A DNA stretch of 64,000 nucleotides from positions 98,936 to 162,935 of the forward strand of contig JANLIT010000003.1 in the NCBI GenBank assembly GCA_024653945.1, in the 5' to 3' direction. Source of the stretch: Candidatus Campbellbacteria bacterium (GTDB taxonomy: Bacteria > Patescibacteriota > Minisyncoccia > Phycocordibacterales > EsbW-18). The notes under the pieces were generated by a model. That model was not told the DNA's origin. It ran no database searches and saw only the letters and a list, made by a program, of their open reading frames with translations. Made by a program: the position numbers and the translations under genes. Below, piece after piece: positions 2,605 to 62,469 of the stretch (the stretch's first letter is position 1; the number at the start of each line of letters is the position of its first letter).

Positions 2605-3096
2605 TCAACCGTGATGAGTTGAGTTGTGTGGATTAAACTCCATTTCGATGTGCGTTTCGGTTTCTCCGGTTTCTTTGAAACCCATACGACGATACAGATT
2701 CGCCGCCTTGTTTTTTTTCAAGACCTGAAGTCGGACGGGTTTATGTTTCGCCCTTACCTGTTCAAGAGATTCCTTCAGAATCTCACTCCCTATGCCTTGC
2801 CCCTGAAACTCTGGGAGTAGTACTAGCTCATGAAGTTGAATTGCATCATCGGTTTCGTGCATCGAAAAATATCCACAGGGCTCGCCGTTGCAATAAATGA
2901 GCTCATGAGGAGAACTTTCCCACGCTGACCGAAAGAATTTGTCCTGCTTTTGTTCATCCCAGCTGCCAAACTGCTTTTCTACAACATCGCGATAAGAGGC
3001 ATGGTGGACTTGACGGGCAAATTCATAATCTTGTTCTTCGGCAGGACGTCGTTTTAGCTGTTTTTGTTGTATCTCTTCTGGTGTAGAAAATTGCAT
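2605..3096 (-). CDS. GNAT family N-acetyltransferase
   Basis: QLHELVLLPEFQGQGIGSEIL acetyl-CoA binding motif; start moved to the internal Met so the CDS does not overlap tRNA-Gln. Confidence 0.75.
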   Translation of the reverse strand: MQFSTPEEIQQKQLKRRPAEEQDYEFARQVHHASYRDVVEKQFGSWDEQKQDKFFRSAWESSPHELIYCNGEPCGYFSMHETDDAIQLHELVLLPEFQGQGIGSEILKESLEQVRAKHKPVRLQVLKKNKAANLYRRMGFKETGETETHIEMEFNPHNSTHHG

Positions 3097-3126
3097 AAAA
3101 TTGGGGTCAGGCACCTTTAATATTTG

Positions 3127-3197
3127 TTCCGGGATAGGGACTCGAACCCCAATACTCAGGACCAAAACCTGATGTCCTACCATTAGACGATCCCGGA
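3127..3197 (-). tRNA. tRNA-Gln (anticodon UUG)
   Basis: Cloverleaf read by eye on the minus strand: acceptor UCCGGGA/UCCCGGA, anticodon stem UCAGG/CCUGA with loop UUUUGGU, T-arm GGGGUUCGAGUCCC. Confidence 0.85.
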
Positions 3198-3203
3198 GTT
3201 TTA

Positions 3204-3310
3204 TTCAGTTGTATCCTACTACGACTCGGCCAAAGGCCTCGCTTGCACTGCGATTTCAACAATCTCTCCGAGATTAAGAAATCGGGAGCATTAGCCCGAC
3301 CCAGCAATTG
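3204..3310 (-). other. Conserved structured leader immediately upstream of tRNA-Gln (copy A); homolog at 55371-55477
   Basis: 45-nt block AGTTGTATCCTACTACGACTCGGCCAAAGGCCTCGCTTGCACTGC is identical to the copy at 55371-55417 except for one mismatch; this copy carries hairpin GATTTC..AATCTC GGA GAGATT..GAAATC where the other copy carries a different perfect hairpin; conserved GGGAGC..GACCCAGCAA block follows. Confidence 0.45.
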
Positions 3311-3336
3311 AAGACACTATATCTTTTAAAACCTCT

Positions 3337-4386
3337 TTAGCCAAGTCTCTGTGCGTATGCACAACAACTTCGCTTCACCAATGATGGTCCTTCAAAAATA
3401 AGTCCTGTAATCATCTGGACCAAATCTGCACCAGCATCAAACTTTTCTAATGCCAACTCGGGAGACAAAACTCCTCCGCATCCAATGATGGTGAATCGAT
3501 TACCAAATCGCTCACGTGTTTTTTGAATCAGCTCTGTTGAGAGTTGTTGACACGGCTTCCCACTTAAACCGCCCACATATTTTTCTGGTGCCTCGTCCCT
3601 ATGTGTCAACGAAGTATAGTCTTTATTGACGTTTCCTATAACAACACCCGAAAGTCCAAATTCGTCAATAATAGTAAGGAGCTTTTCAAAAAGATGCCAC
3701 GGAATATTGATGGGCATTTTTATATACATTGGCTTTGAGTGTTGAATTGTTTTCAATTCCGACAGAAGTGCTCCAAGAAGTTCTGATGTGGTGAATGTTT
3801 CTCCACCAGATGCATTCGGACATGAAATATTAATTGTGTAATAATCACCAACGCCTGCGTGAACAAGTTGTTGTAAAGAATACACATAGTCAGCAATGCC
3901 GTCTTCAATACTTGCGGCCTGCTTGTCATTTGTTCGAGCAATACTTATACCAATCACGTACTCTTTTTCGCGTGGACAAGATTGTAGTCGTCTGATAATT
4001 GCATCAACACCATCATTGCGAAGTCCTTTGTTTACCAAAATACTTTGTGAACGAATAAGTCGTGTGAGTCTAGGTTTTGGATTTCCCTCGCATACTCGGG
4101 CAGTAACCGAACCCACCTCTTCCCCACCAAGTCCAATTGAGGGAAGAATGCGCGTGAGACGACCGTTGTAATCAAGGCCCGCAGATAAGAGGAATGGGGT
4201 TCTATATACGATGCCATCTACCGTCTTTGAGATATCCGGGCCCCTGTAGCCGTATATACCACGCACCAAGGCCCGAGATACGTCAAAACGACCAAACCAC
4301 TCACCGAAAGCAACCATGACATCGTGGGCCCTTTCAGGGTCAAGTTGAAAAAGTATTGGTTTTAAAAGTAATTTATAGAACGACAT
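3337..4386 (-). CDS. pyrD: Dihydroorotate dehydrogenase (quinone-type)
   Basis: N-terminus LLKPILFQLDPERAHD and overall DHODH class 2 architecture. Confidence 0.8.
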   Translation of the reverse strand: MSFYKLLLKPILFQLDPERAHDVMVAFGEWFGRFDVSRALVRGIYGYRGPDISKTVDGIVYRTPFLLSAGLDYNGRLTRILPSIGLGGEEVGSVTARVCEGNPKPRLTRLIRSQSILVNKGLRNDGVDAIIRRLQSCPREKEYVIGISIARTNDKQAASIEDGIADYVYSLQQLVHAGVGDYYTINISCPNASGGETFTTSELLGALLSELKTIQHSKPMYIKMPINIPWHLFEKLLTIIDEFGLSGVVIGNVNKDYTSLTHRDEAPEKYVGGLSGKPCQQLSTELIQKTRERFGNRFTIIGCGGVLSPELALEKFDAGADLVQMITGLIFEGPSLVKRSCCAYAQRLG

Positions 4387-15602: not shown

Positions 15603-15684
15603 GCCGGGGTGGCGTAATTGGTAGCCGCGCACGACTCAAAATCGTGTGTCGTAAGACATGAGGGTTCGATTCCCTCCCCCGGCA
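15603..15684 (+). tRNA. tRNA-Leu (anticodon CAA), type II with long variable arm
   Basis: Acceptor GCCGGGG/CCCCGGC, anticodon stem CACGA/UCGUG with loop CUCAAAA, T-arm GAGGGUUCGAUUCCCUC. Confidence 0.85.
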
Positions 15685-15795
15685 CAGCGGAAAATGTGGA
15701 CATACTGGGTGTATGTTTATATTTTGCGCCTTTGGGGAATCGAAGGCCGGAGCACGACGGTGCGACCCAGTAGGTCAATGTACTCATTGAGACGG

Positions 15796-15825
15796 GGACA
15801 AAAGCAAACTGCTTTGCTTTTGTCC
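15796..15825. repeat. Perfect 13-bp stem hairpin with 4-nt loop
   Basis: GGACAAAAGCAAA-CTGC-TTTGCTTTTGTCC. Confidence 0.6.
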
Positions 15826-15870
15826 GAACGAAGTGAGGTGGACGCGGAACTTTTCACCAGAAAAGTATTC

Positions 15871-15893
15871 GTGACCGATTCCCTCCCCCGGCA
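15871..15893 (+). repeat. Direct repeat of the tRNA-Leu 3' end (T-arm half plus acceptor), att-like
   Basis: CGATTCCCTCCCCCGGCACA is identical to tRNA-Leu 15665-15686 and lies ~185 bp downstream. Confidence 0.6.
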
Positions 15894-15897
15894 CAAC

Positions 15898-16215
15898 ATG
15901 AAAAAACTACAAAATCTCGGATTAAGTGCTCAGTCGTGGCGATACCTCGTGAATATGTGGACTGTCTTTCTTTTTGTGATTATTATCTGGGATTTTGTGA
16001 CCAACAACGGACTTGGAAATATTATCGGGGCTGTTGCGGCAATTTATACAGGTGCACTTGTCATATACAGTGCAGAAAAAGAATTTGAACGGTGGAGTGA
16101 TAACCACGCAGGGCGCCACCCCGGCGAACTGTATGTCATCGCATGGACCTGTTCTTATGGTACTCATCTTCTCCGCAGAAGTTATTCTGCGAAAACCATA
16201 CACAGTACCACATGA
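15898..16215 (+). CDS. Small membrane protein, possibly frameshifted (C-terminus may continue in the frame of ORF 16013-16315)
   Basis: ATG right after the att-like repeat; two transmembrane helices; the adjacent frame ends with a natural-looking C-terminus (...IAVISILAITKKSKRYYFRKKKITPLE); a homopolymer CCCCGG sits near the frame switch. Confidence 0.3.
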   Translation: MKKLQNLGLSAQSWRYLVNMWTVFLFVIIIWDFVTNNGLGNIIGAVAAIYTGALVIYSAEKEFERWSDNHAGRHPGELYVIAWTCSYGTHLLRRSYSAKTIHSTT

Positions 16216-18905: not shown

Positions 18906-18990
18906 GGAGGGTTCGCATAGTGGTCTAGTGCGCACGCTTGGAAAGCGTGTGTGCCGCAAGGCACCATGAGTTCGAATCTCATACCCTCCG
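18906..18990 (+). tRNA. tRNA-Ser (anticodon GGA), type II
   Basis: Acceptor GGAGGGU/ACCCUCC, anticodon stem CACGC/GCGUG with loop UUGGAAA, long variable arm, T-arm AUGAGUUCGAAUCUCAU. Confidence 0.8.
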
Positions 18991-18997
18991 CTTTGTG

Positions 18998-19052
18998 TGG
19001 GAGAAAGCGTGTGTGGGTCACACCACCGAGAGTTCGAATCTCTCCGCCTCCG
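18998..19052 (+). pseudogene. 3' half of a tRNA-Ser paralog (anticodon loop through acceptor); partner of the 5' fragment at 18812
   Basis: GGGAGAAAGCGTG-TGTGGGTCACACCACC-GAGAGTTCGAATCTCTC-CGCCTCC-G parallels the tRNA-Ser 3' half; the core TGTGGGAGAAAGCG recurs at 19133-19148. Confidence 0.5.
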
Positions 19053-19088
19053 CACCTGATGCAAAAATACCCCGCGAGGGGTATTCTT
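19046..19088 (+). other. Stable hairpin with GNRA tetraloop downstream of the tRNA-Ser fragment
   Basis: CCTGATGCAA-AATACCCC-GCGA-GGGGTATT-CTTTGTGTCAGG. Confidence 0.45.
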
Positions 19089-23741: not shown

Positions 23742-23748
23742 GTAAAGT

Positions 23749-23860
23749 ACGAAATCCGAATATCGAAACCCGAAATAATGTTTAATTCTCTAAATTCAAA
23801 AACTTTAAACATAAGAATTTGTTGATTTTTTCGAATTTCGTATTTCGAGTTTCGGATTTT
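23749..23860. repeat. Inverted-repeat element built from TTTCGR heptads, copy 1 (family with 62348-62469)
   Basis: Left arm GTACGAAATCCGAATATCGAAACCCGAAATAATG, AT-rich spacer, right arm TTTTCGAATTTCGTATTTCGAGTTTCGGATTTT (imperfect reverse complement); the left arm is ~88% identical to the ftsX-upstream copy; it fills the gap 8 nt upstream of the htpX ATG. Confidence 0.6.
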
Positions 23861-53781: not shown

Positions 53782-53835
53782 TTTTAACTTAAGTATTCAT
53801 TTTTCAATAAGCAAGTACCTTCTTTTGAGGCATTT

Positions 53836-53869
53836 CAATCACCTGACTTAGCATAAGCGTGTTGGCTGA
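53836..53869. repeat. 34-nt conserved upstream element, copy 1 (upstream of the CYTH gene)
   Basis: TCAATCACCTGACTTAGCATAAGCGTGTTGGCTG; 32/34 identical to 54659-54692. Confidence 0.6.
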
Positions 53870-54002: not shown

Positions 54003-54611
54003 TTAGTCCTGATGAAACATCCCCTTGGACACCCCTTCGTTTCGGATTAGTTCATAAAACATCGTTAAAACTTTTGAAAAAGAGTGTCGAGGAAGCTGGC
54101 GTGCATCAAGTGCAGAGACGGTGGCATGTTCCTCTTCCATTTTTCCTTTCCATCCAATTTCAAATGTCGTTCGGTGAACAACGGAATCAAACCGATCAAT
54201 TGACTTCACAGCTTTTGCTTCTGGTGTTTCTTTTGCTTCACACTCTTCCCACAGTTTTAATACTTCATCTCGAAGATCGTCTGGAAGTTTTGTTGTCATG
54301 CTATGTATCGCCGCTCGTTCTTTTTCCTCTTTATTCACTCTCGAATCGGTATCCCACGTTTTTGTGTCACCGGTCTGTATCTCTGCAAGGTCGTGTATGA
54401 GTGCCATCTTGAGCATCTTTTCACCGTCTAGTTTTGTTTCAAACTCCTTTTCAAGACGAGGTTTCAGGAGCATGCAAGTTACTGCAACAGACCATGAGTG
54501 TTCTGCGTCGTTTTCGTATCCACCGTTCGGTTGGGGTGTGAAACGATAGGTATGATGAAGTTTCCTTATCTCCTTAAGAAAGTCCAGTATCTGTCCTATA
54601 TCTTTTTCCAT
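54003..54611 (-). CDS. HD-domain phosphohydrolase (YfbR-like 5'-deoxynucleotidase)
   Basis: H..HD...E..GD metal-binding pattern (AEHSWSV...LIHDLAEIQTGD). Confidence 0.8.
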   Translation of the reverse strand: MEKDIGQILDFLKEIRKLHHTYRFTPQPNGGYENDAEHSWSVAVTCMLLKPRLEKEFETKLDGEKMLKMALIHDLAEIQTGDTKTWDTDSRVNKEEKERAAIHSMTTKLPDDLRDEVLKLWEECEAKETPEAKAVKSIDRFDSVVHRTTFEIGWKGKMEEEHATVSALDARQLPRHSFSKVLTMFYELIRNEGVSKGMFHQD

Positions 54612-54658: not shown

Positions 54659-54692
54659 TCAATCACCTAACGTAGCATAAGCGTGTTGGCTG
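54659..54692. repeat. 34-nt conserved upstream element, copy 2 (upstream of the HD gene)
   Basis: TCAATCACCTAACGTAGCATAAGCGTGTTGGCTG. Confidence 0.6.
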
Positions 54693-55295: not shown

Positions 55296-55365
55296 TGCTG
55301 GGCTTGGATTCGAACCAAGGTGACGACTTTCAGAGAGTCGCATCCTACCGCTAGATGACCCAGCA
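55296..55365 (-). tRNA. tRNA-Gln (anticodon CUG)
   Basis: Acceptor GCUGGGU/GCCCAGC, anticodon stem CGACU/AGUCG with loop CUCUGAA, T-arm UUGGUUCGAAUCCAA. Confidence 0.85.
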
Positions 55366-55370
55366 ATACA

Positions 55371-55477
55371 TAGTTGTGTCCTACTACGACTCGGCCAAAG
55401 GCCTCGCTTGCACTGCTGTTTGTATTCAATCGCTTTGCTCTTGAACAAACAGGGAGCGTTAGATGACCCAGCAAAGT
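55371..55477 (-). other. Conserved structured leader upstream of tRNA-Gln (copy B)
   Basis: Same 45-nt block as 3206-3250; this copy's hairpin is CUGUUUGU..ACAAACAG (8 bp perfect) at the position of the other copy's different perfect hairpin; its 5' block TGCTGGGTCATCTAACG mimics the 5' end of tRNA-Gln(CUG). Confidence 0.45.
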
Positions 55478-55552
55478 AGCTACACAATGCCCTATTTTGG
55501 GGCTTTTTTCAATCCCCTTTCGTTAGCACGGCAGTGAGCGTACACTTTATGT

Positions 55553-55867
55553 ATGATAGTACAAAAATACATTGAGTATCTTAAAGATAATCCTGAAAAA
55601 TACTGGTTCAAACGAAAAATATTTGGGTGGGGTTGGACTCCTGCAACGTGGCAGGGTTGGCTGATACTTCTGCTCTTTATCGCTTTGATAGTTGGCAATG
55701 CGTACCGAACAGATACCCAATCACTCTCTGGTGATGTACCCGTCGCATTTCTTGTGCAAACATTCATCCTTGTGATTGTTCTTATTGCAATCTGTTACAA
55801 AACTGGAGAAAAACCACGATGGCAGTGGGGCTTTCCTAAAAAAGACAATGACATCCCACGCACTTAG
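55553..55867 (+). CDS. Hypothetical small membrane protein
   Basis: Two transmembrane helices; Trp-rich N-terminus. Confidence 0.45.
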   Translation: MIVQKYIEYLKDNPEKYWFKRKIFGWGWTPATWQGWLILLLFIALIVGNAYRTDTQSLSGDVPVAFLVQTFILVIVLIAICYKTGEKPRWQWGFPKKDNDIPRT

Positions 55868-62333: not shown

Positions 62334-62347
62334 AATAGTTACATTAA

Positions 62348-62469
62348 GCACGAAATCCGAATGTCGAAATCCGAAATAATATCTAATTTTTAAATTTAAA
62401 ATTTTTAAACATTTGGATATTCATACATTTTTATTTGTTTCGATTTTCGTGCTTCGATATTCGAATTTT
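62348..62469. repeat. Inverted-repeat element built from TTTCGR heptads, copy 2 (between ftsE and ftsX)
   Basis: Left arm GCACGAAATCCGAATGTCGAAATCCGAAATAATA, right arm TTTCGATTTTCGTGCTTCGATATTCGAATTTT; the right arm overlaps the ftsE stop; the left arm ends 15 nt before the ftsX ATG. Confidence 0.6.

Follow-up and report, generated by a model that had tools for sequence, protein, structure and literature searches.

The sequence analysed was a 64-kb stretch, hereafter the window, of Candidatus Campbellbacteria (Patescibacteria/candidate phyla radiation, CPR). Four tRNA genes were found in it (ARAGORN and Rfam), including two for tRNA-Gln. Two homologous elements of ~105 nucleotides (nt) lay on the minus strand, copy A (3306..3207) directly 5' of tRNA-Gln(UUG) and copy B (55473..55372) directly 5' of tRNA-Gln(CUG), and the tRNA calls together with the positions of the shared blocks confirmed the original prediction of a homologous pair at these genes. 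On the minus strand, both copies had the same order of parts, namely a tRNA-like segment, CTCCC, a hairpin, a 45-nt block, a spacer and the tRNA (Table 1).

The 45-nt block (consensus GCAGTGCAAGCGAGGCCTTTGGCCGAGTCGTAGTAGGAYACAACT) differed between copies A and B at a single position, as previously claimed, and its 33-nt core occurred exactly twice in the window (0 expected; 100 shuffles). The tail of the block, GTAGTAGGAY, was purine-rich and resembled the D-arm and T-arm of tRNAs. The distal block TGCTGGGTC..CTAAYGCTCCC was likewise recovered from both copies, and its earlier description as a mimic of the tRNA-Gln 5' end proved correct, most closely in copy B (16 of the first 17 nt agreeing with its own tRNA), which held an exact 15-nt repeat of the tRNA-Gln(CUG) 5' end (tRNA-side repeat at 55352-55366). 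In copy A, the first 9 nt of the 5' segment agreed with tRNA-Gln(CUG), and its 3' half, CTAATG, with tRNA-Gln(UUG). The hairpin was 32 or 35 nt long, and the spacer to the tRNA was 9 nt in copy A and 6 nt in copy B.

Table 1. Positions of the tRNA-Gln genes and of the parts of the two elements in the window.
Feature	Position	Strand	Remarks
tRNA-Gln(UUG)	3126/7-3197	-	ARAGORN + Rfam; identical to the gene of relative L005
Copy A spacer GAATAAAAC	3198..3206	-	Between element and tRNA
Copy A 45-nt block GCAGTGCAAGCGAGGCCTTTGGCCGAGTCGTAGTAGGATACAACT	3207..3251	-	Conserved; contains GGCC-TTT-GGCC mini-hairpin
Copy A hairpin	3252..3283	-	Outer stem GAUUUC..GAAAUC, inner AAUCUC/GAGAUU
Copy A CTCCC junction	3284..3288	-	Invariant across four distinct sequences
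Copy A tRNA-like 5' segment TGCTGGGTCGGGCTAATG	3289..3306	-	
Promoter-like TTGGCT-17-TATAGT upstream of copy A	3316..3344	-	Sole promoter-like match in 2900-3600
tRNA-Gln(CUG)	55294/5-55365	-	ARAGORN + Rfam
Copy B 45-nt block	55372..55416	-	Conserved
Copy B hairpin	55417..55451	-	Homologous to Hainich hairpins, with compensatory differences
Copy B CTCCC junction	55452..55456	-	Invariant
Copy B tRNA-like 5' segment TGCTGGGTCATCTAACG	55457..55473	-	Agrees with downstream tRNA-Gln(CUG)
Copy B upstream region	55478..55512	-	Weak promoter-like TTGAAA-17-CATTGT and GCCCC..GGGC hairpin

The promoter-like sequence upstream of copy B was read by eye and was absent from the promoter scan output. Copy A was flanked by genes for DHO dehydrogenase (3337-4386, minus strand) and GNAT, and copy B by a small open reading frame (ORF) and a serine hydrolase gene. 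A segmental duplication was ruled out because these flanking genes are unrelated; the hairpins of the two copies also differed.

Homologues and distribution

A metagenome scan with GGCCGAGTCGTAGTAGGA returned three real loci, all from Hainich groundwater, and 21 chance matches in high-GC DNA. The three homologues (L038, L048 and L050), from metagenome assemblies, each stood upstream of tRNA-Gln(CUG) with the parts in the same order as in the window. The known set thus comprised five copies, representing four distinct sequences from two lineages with one architecture, all beside tRNA-Gln. A covariance model built from the four distinct sequences (R1) scored the five copies at 98-127 bits (copy A, 97.8 bits over 3201-3307; copy B, 126.9 bits over 55366-55474) and found no further match in ~200 kb of related loci. 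No copies beyond the two linked to tRNA-Gln were present in the window, and none in related loci.

In all three homologues, the Hainich 5' segment, TGCCAGATCGTCTAATG, matched the start of the adjacent tRNA exactly over 17 nt (standard positions 1-18), and the match also took in three leader nt, giving a 20-nt exact repeat, TAT+TGCCAGATCGTCTAATG. The 5' segment therefore tracks the local tRNA and has no single fixed sequence. The break came after G18, followed by CTCCC, in every copy. A direct repeat of a tRNA end beside an insert was found for the Hainich copies and copy B, not for copy A; it covered tRNA positions -3 to +18 and left the 3' part of the tRNA uncovered, and ~90-165 nt lay between the tRNA-end repeats.

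The Hainich tail, GTAGTAGGACTCCTTAGTCCGCAACA, aligned at 21/27 positions with the tRNA-Gln T-arm, acceptor 3' strand and ACA (0/1000 shuffles as good), and its segment TCCTTAGTCCGCA was missing from the window copies. The tRNA-identical 5' end and this tRNA-like tail show that the element derives from tRNA-Gln, as a truncated copy with a foreign or re-evolved middle; decay has gone further in the window copies. Compared with the Hainich copies, copy B was 85-90% identical in the core, against 73-74% for the tRNA-Gln(CUG) genes, and the flanks were unalignable. The boundaries, G18|CUCCC ... GGAY, were the same in all copies.

The Hainich element was located ~68 nt upstream of its tRNA, from which it was parted by a ~55-nt AT-rich stretch with a promoter-like TATAGT, and its own promoter-like site, TTGAAT-17-TATCGT, was found further upstream. 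The Hainich element may therefore be a separate transcription unit and not a leader.

The L038 (201-272) and L050 (72-144) contigs were identical from the element promoter to the tRNA T-arm; where the acceptor 3' strand begins, the two parted completely, in the manner of an integration site. The 3' strand in L050, TCCCGCA, mismatched its own 5' strand, TGCCAGA, at two positions. Immediately downstream in L038, a DNA methyltransferase-like ORF and an ATPase-like ORF of 619 amino acids were recognised by eye from the translations. The divergence suggests that DNA integrated at the 3' end of the tRNA or that the assembly is chimeric.

The contigs of the closest DHO dehydrogenase homologues, L005 (81% identity) and L008 (79%), kept the gene order Dus-DnaX-DHOdh-tRNA-Gln(UUG) and the promoter-like TTGGCT-17-TATAGT. 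There, TATAGTGTCTCCGTAACAC ran directly into an identical tRNA-Gln(UUG), with a promoter-to-tRNA gap of 13 nt and no element, whereas the window had the ~105-nt element between TATAGTGTCT and the tRNA. This empty orthologous locus contradicts a general tRNA-Gln leader, and it went partly against the original prediction on the very comparison offered for its refutation, in which the other outcome, a segmental duplication with matching flanks, did not materialise. Judged by the empty loci, copy A is an insertion or a lineage-specific retention and not a universal leader.

The element appears to be rare and limited to a few Paceibacteria-type lineages. A scan of genome contigs with CAAGCGN{10,16}GAGTCGTAGTAGGA gave four chance matches and says little on rarity, since the Hainich copies, with CAGGG in place of CAAGCG, escape so strict a pattern. 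A metagenome scan built around TTGCTGGGTC and the D-arm and T-arm of the tRNA gave no match. When synteny of the CUG locus was followed through the serine hydrolase gene, the more distant contigs had no tRNA-Gln there, and the closest ones ended upstream of the gene. These closest contigs (L013 and L014, positions 1-25; 70% identity of the hydrolase) ended 22-23 nt upstream of the gene, a position occupied in the window by tRNA-Gln(CUG) and the element; the repeat may break assemblies at this point.

RNA structure, strand and coding potential

Both hairpins folded better than dinucleotide shuffles (copy A, z = -3.0; copy B, z = -2.9). The original prediction of a hairpin in each copy was therefore upheld, but not its description as perfect: the hairpin of copy A consisted of 6 base pairs (bp), an internal loop and 7 bp, and that of copy B of 7 bp, a 2-nt bulge, 4 bp, a 2x2 loop and 2 bp. 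Nor did the hairpin sequences differ completely, as had been stated, since GATTG and a U-rich outer stem were common to both. Covariation could not be claimed from the two window copies, but became demonstrable once the Hainich homologues were added.

The hairpins of copy B, L038 and L048 had identical architecture with compensatory differences. The outer stem read UGUUUG/CAAACA in copy B and L048, GUUUUG/CAAAAC in L038 and GAUUUC/GAAAUC in copy A, and one inner pair changed from U-A to C-G in L048. In the alignment of the four distinct sequences, compensatory substitution was found at five hairpin pairs, changed on both sides. Hairpin alignment cells were paired in 95% of cases vs 35-46% with slid partners, and 0-3/500 shuffles reached the observed values.

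RNAalifold also joined the tRNA-like 5' strand to an internal segment, UYUGGC..AGGC, in a predicted long-range helix. It consisted of six Watson-Crick pairs in Hainich (GCCAGA/UCUGGC) and of two Watson-Crick and four G-U pairs in the window (GCUGGG/UUUGGC). All the differences between the lineages (4/4) were one-sided and wobble-compatible on the tRNA strand only (C-G to U-G, A-U to G-U twice, G-C to G-U). This helix is suggestive, not proven. Complementarity between the ends of the element (distal block vs the 3' part of the 45-nt block) was unexceptional, with 17% and 9% of shuffles folding as well. When the complete precursors of copy B and L038 were folded to minimum free energy (MFE), the tRNA-like segment, acting as a decoy 5' strand, paired with the 3' acceptor strand of the tRNA; in MFE folds of the element alone, it paired internally.

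The window had no promoter-like site between element and tRNA and no terminator after the hairpin. Both window tRNA-Gln genes are probably transcribed through the element, because the promoter-like site lies upstream only and no terminator intervenes. The tRNA-sense strand was favoured because of the G-U pairs in the long-range helix, G-U pairing in an extra upstream hairpin of the Hainich copies and the upstream promoter-like sites. On the plus strand, a terminator-like hairpin, GCCCTATTTTGGGGC, followed by TTTTTT, was seen at 55489-55509, directly after copy B and upstream of a plus-strand ORF at 55553. It had no plus-strand gene upstream to terminate, and it overlapped the spacer of the weak minus-strand promoter-like site.

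Open frames crossed the element at both loci, and the frame QCKRGLWPSRSR exists, but copies A and B were open in different registers relative to the start codons. A 1-nt indel in the Hainich block shifted the frame to QCREASGRVVVG, and the element was considered non-coding because this indel breaks the QCKRGLWPSRSR frame. A protein database search with the ORF of 66 amino acids gave one match, to the tRNA-encoded part only, and none to the element part. The serine hydrolase record started at the methionine of MKRA..., and its homologues started at the aligned M-K-R/K. A protein-coding gene was thus ruled out by the frame-shifting indel and by the absence of a homologue of the element-encoded peptide, and the warning in the original prediction that the translated frame is an annotation trap was justified.

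No match was found in Rfam 15 over the window copies or the Hainich copy (cmscan at the gathering threshold and at E <= 10), so that this search, which had been suggested as a check, placed neither window copy in a family. Rfam gave no support for a ribozyme, a riboswitch, a T-box or a group I intron, and these readings were rejected. As far as covariance models tell, described ribozymes, riboswitches (including those for glutamine), T-boxes, group I introns and tRNA-like RNAs are excluded. No cloverleaf was detected over the element by cmscan (E <= 10) or ARAGORN, which returned only the downstream tRNAs.

Other partial tRNA copies and repeats

Partial copies of other tRNAs were seen in the window. 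Downstream of tRNA-Leu(CAA) (15603-15685, plus strand), a 19-nt stretch of the tRNA 3' end, GATTCCCTCCCCCGGCACA, recurred without a mismatch ~183 nt further on (15869-15887). The insert between the two was strongly structured (z = -3.7; 15722-15890), had no Rfam match and held GGGGAATCGAAGGCCGGAGC, resembling GGGATTCGAACGCCGGAGC of an element in the related contig L006. The overlapping ORF of 185 amino acids (15658-16215) probably has its true start at the ATG at 15899. Eleven nt after tRNA-Ser(GGA) (18906-18991, plus strand), its 3' half, from anticodon loop to acceptor end, was repeated at 76% identity (19003-19053), and GTGTGGGAGAAAGCG occurred twice nearby (~18994 and ~19135). The tRNA-Ser 3'-half copy looks like a classic attachment-site remnant.

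Related contigs had insertions of their own at tRNA-Gln(UUG). In L006 (13085-13348, plus strand; DHO dehydrogenase 80% identical), the tRNA was followed by a terminator-like hairpin and then by a 140-nt element that started with tRNA nt 1-8 and ended with the last 17 nt of the tRNA. It folded strongly (z = -6.2) with a long closing helix resembling acceptor stem plus T stem, and had no Rfam match. It was rejected as a member of the family studied here: the similarity (GCGAGGC.., CGAGTCGaAGgAG) was not significant (10% of shuffles as good overall, 56% for the core), and R1 did not match it. In L011 (731-900, plus strand), a perfect 22-nt repeat of the tRNA-Gln(UUG) 5' end, TTGCCGGGTCGTCTAATGGTAG, lay 73 nt upstream of the tRNA. 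Its insert was unrelated, with a terminator-like hairpin, CTTTGTC..GACAAAG, followed by GTTTT, and its junction came after G22, unlike that of the element studied.

Two further repeats were seen in the window. A 34-nt direct repeat (94%; 53835-53868 and 54659-54692) bracketed an HD-domain (YfbR-like) gene (54003-54611), a homologous family member of which stood between dnaX and the DHO dehydrogenase gene in L006 and L007; the HD-domain gene may have been relocated as a cassette. The other direct repeat, of 56 nt and 82% identity (AAGYACGAAATCCGAATRTCGAAAYCCGAAATAAT...), was present at two distant sites, 23745-23800 and 62346-62401.

Origin, possible role and comparison with known systems

The element was interpreted as a selected, tRNA-derived non-coding RNA, with a probability of about 0.45. 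It would have originated as a truncated tandem copy of a tRNA-Gln gene, with tRNA positions 1-18 retained at its 5' end; the Hainich versions would also retain, in degenerate form, the T-arm and the acceptor 3' strand at their 3' end. Its middle would be a conserved non-tRNA core of ~70 nt, consisting of CUCCC, the hairpin of 32-35 nt and GCAGUGCA..GAGGCC-UYU-GGCCGAGUCGUAGUAGGA, and maintained through selection on the folded RNA. In the window, pre-tRNA-Gln would carry the transcribed element as a 5' leader of ~110 nt, which an RNase P cut at tRNA position +1 would free. By itself the element is predicted to fold into a rod, built by pairing of the tRNA-like 5' strand with the internal UYUGGC..AGGC and capped by the variable hairpin.

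A specific role can be proposed only tentatively. The three candidates first put forward, a leader, a co-transcribed small RNA and an att-like scar, all keep some probability, and to them is added the finding of a truncated tRNA-Gln copy with a conserved core. The element may bias precursor folding and RNase P maturation through its decoy 5' strand, or it may act as a released tRNA-mimic RNA. The cis role would be the likeliest: the decoy strand would alternate between the internal segment and the downstream tRNA 3' acceptor strand, and the leader would thereby influence folding and 5' maturation of pre-tRNA-Gln. In the alternative role, it would be a released, stable tRNA-mimic small RNA. An improbable extension is a tRNA-mimic riboregulator within the pre-tRNA, in which the decoy competes with the true 5' strand and the core decides between them upon binding of a metabolite or protein related to the status of glutamine or tRNA-Gln, gating RNase P maturation of the cell's only tRNA-Gln genes.

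Several observations weigh against a selected RNA or against its cis role. The element is dispensable for tRNA-Gln(UUG) expression in close relatives, to judge from their empty loci. The term leader fits the window and not the whole family, and the loss of the 3' tRNA-like arm from the window copies looks like decay. Whole-element folding energy was not significant (z = -1.4 and -1.7), and no double compensatory change was found in the long-range helix. The decoy of copy A is of the CUG type and, by eye, pairs with the UUG tRNA 3' strand at 5/7 positions; a cis switch would thus not be expected to work at the UUG locus. Structure beyond the hairpin is provisional because it was derived from the same sequences, only four of them distinct and from two lineages, and for such a set the covariation statistics are weak.

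A non-functional scar was considered unlikely, yet it draws on some of the same observations. It would be the remnant of a tandem tRNA-Gln duplication, or of the imprecise loss of an element that used the tRNA-Gln 5' part as its attachment site, with the 5' similarity due to gene conversion only. The empty orthologous UUG locus in L005 and L008 and the loss of the Hainich 3' arm from the window copies agree with it, partial tRNA copies beside intact tRNAs are common (tRNA-Leu, tRNA-Ser, L011, L006), and the divergence of L038 and L050 at the tRNA 3' strand together with the ORFs of L038 suggests an integration hot spot at tRNA-Gln. A scar does not account for a core better conserved than the functional tRNA amid unalignable flanks, for hairpin pairing kept by compensatory changes, or for identical boundaries in all copies. 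No integrase was found nearby; the neighbours were housekeeping genes (DHO dehydrogenase, GNAT, DnaX, Dus, sortase, serine hydrolase, HD, CYTH, MFS and RNR). It also counts against a scar that integrative elements reportedly duplicate the 3' rather than the 5' part of tRNA genes.

Slightly less likely again is that the element is a small piece of non-autonomous DNA, mobile or duplicative, which lands just upstream of tRNA-Gln genes and is mobilised in trans, its hairpin and block being recombination or protein-binding sites rather than RNA. Mobility would explain two copies in one genome, at both tRNA-Gln genes and with unrelated flanks, as well as the insertion polymorphism at the UUG locus and the CUG-type 5' segment of copy A beside a UUG tRNA, as if from a B-like donor. 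The core was similar across diverged hosts with a patchy distribution (three real matches in the metagenome collection), the tRNA-derived repeat of copy B and the Hainich copies is readable as a target duplication, and hairpin compensation equally fits a DNA hairpin. However, terminal inverted repeats did not exceed those of shuffles, copy A had no target-site duplication, and no integrase, transposase or reverse transcriptase was present within ~6 kb of either copy. Dispersed copies were likewise lacking in the window and related loci, searches of viral (three scans), phage and plasmid (BLAST) collections gave chance matches or none, and the wobble-only changes in the long-range helix favour an RNA of the tRNA strand.

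Highly improbable is an RNA of the plus strand, in which a scaffold and a 3' segment complementary to the tRNA-Gln 5' end would target tRNA-Gln or its gene, as an antisense or guide RNA. Type V and TnpB guide RNAs have a similar order, the scaffold first and then the 3' guide (17-18 nt here), and the terminator-like hairpin with a T-run right after copy B (55489-55509) would suit such a transcript. Neither copy A nor the Hainich copies had a comparable terminator after them, the plus strand yielded no promoter-like site, and no nuclease gene was among the neighbours examined; on this strand, moreover, the G-U pairs of the long-range helix and the Hainich upstream hairpin become A-C mismatches. 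A short protein gene (QCKRGLWPSRSR...) or an N-terminal extension of the serine hydrolase has next to no probability, since the frames that cross both copies differ in register, are broken by the Hainich indel and have a protein match to the tRNA part only, and the hydrolase starts at its M-K-R/K methionine.

If the core is a functional RNA, a truncated tRNA copy would have been reused as a structured leader or small RNA acting on the same tRNA species in a reduced CPR genome, and would be a candidate for cis regulation of tRNA maturation; neither such a leader or small RNA nor such a cis regulator is a described RNA family. Were the riboregulator reading true, it would represent a new class of cis-regulation on the tRNA itself. 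If the element is only a scar, tRNA-Gln 5' ends, besides 3' ends, would gain partial duplications in Paceibacteria-type genomes. For annotation, gene callers translate the element as QCKRGLWPSRSR or as a 68-residue N-terminal extension of the serine hydrolase.

The window element resembles ordinary pre-tRNA 5' leaders in lying between promoter and tRNA +1 on the tRNA strand, with no terminator and with presumed removal by RNase P. It differs from them in length (~110 nt vs 13 nt in L005 and L008) and in being conserved, structured and tRNA-derived, and the Hainich element is parted from its tRNA by a second promoter-like site. With tRNA-gene att scars (attL/attR), of which the window holds classic 3'-end examples at tRNA-Leu and tRNA-Ser, it shares a direct repeat of a tRNA end, a short foreign segment and an intact tRNA, but it repeats the 5' end (-3 to +18), has no integrase and carries an insert conserved with compensatory changes.

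The tRNA-like domain of tmRNA, YrlA and mascRNA likewise have tRNA parts around a non-tRNA core and ends that follow tRNA sequence; the element differs in having no T-arm/CCA end, in the lack of a complete acceptor stem in the window copies and in having no Rfam match at E <= 10. Group I introns at tRNA genes occur in the same phylum and are also structured RNA insertions associated with tRNA genes. They are usually far longer than the element, which lies upstream of an intact tRNA and matches no group I model. T-box leaders share with it a structured leader RNA and a logic involving one specific tRNA. T-boxes, for which Rfam gave no match here, precede aminoacyl-tRNA synthetase or amino-acid genes and bind tRNA in trans, whereas the element precedes the tRNA itself and copies part of that tRNA.

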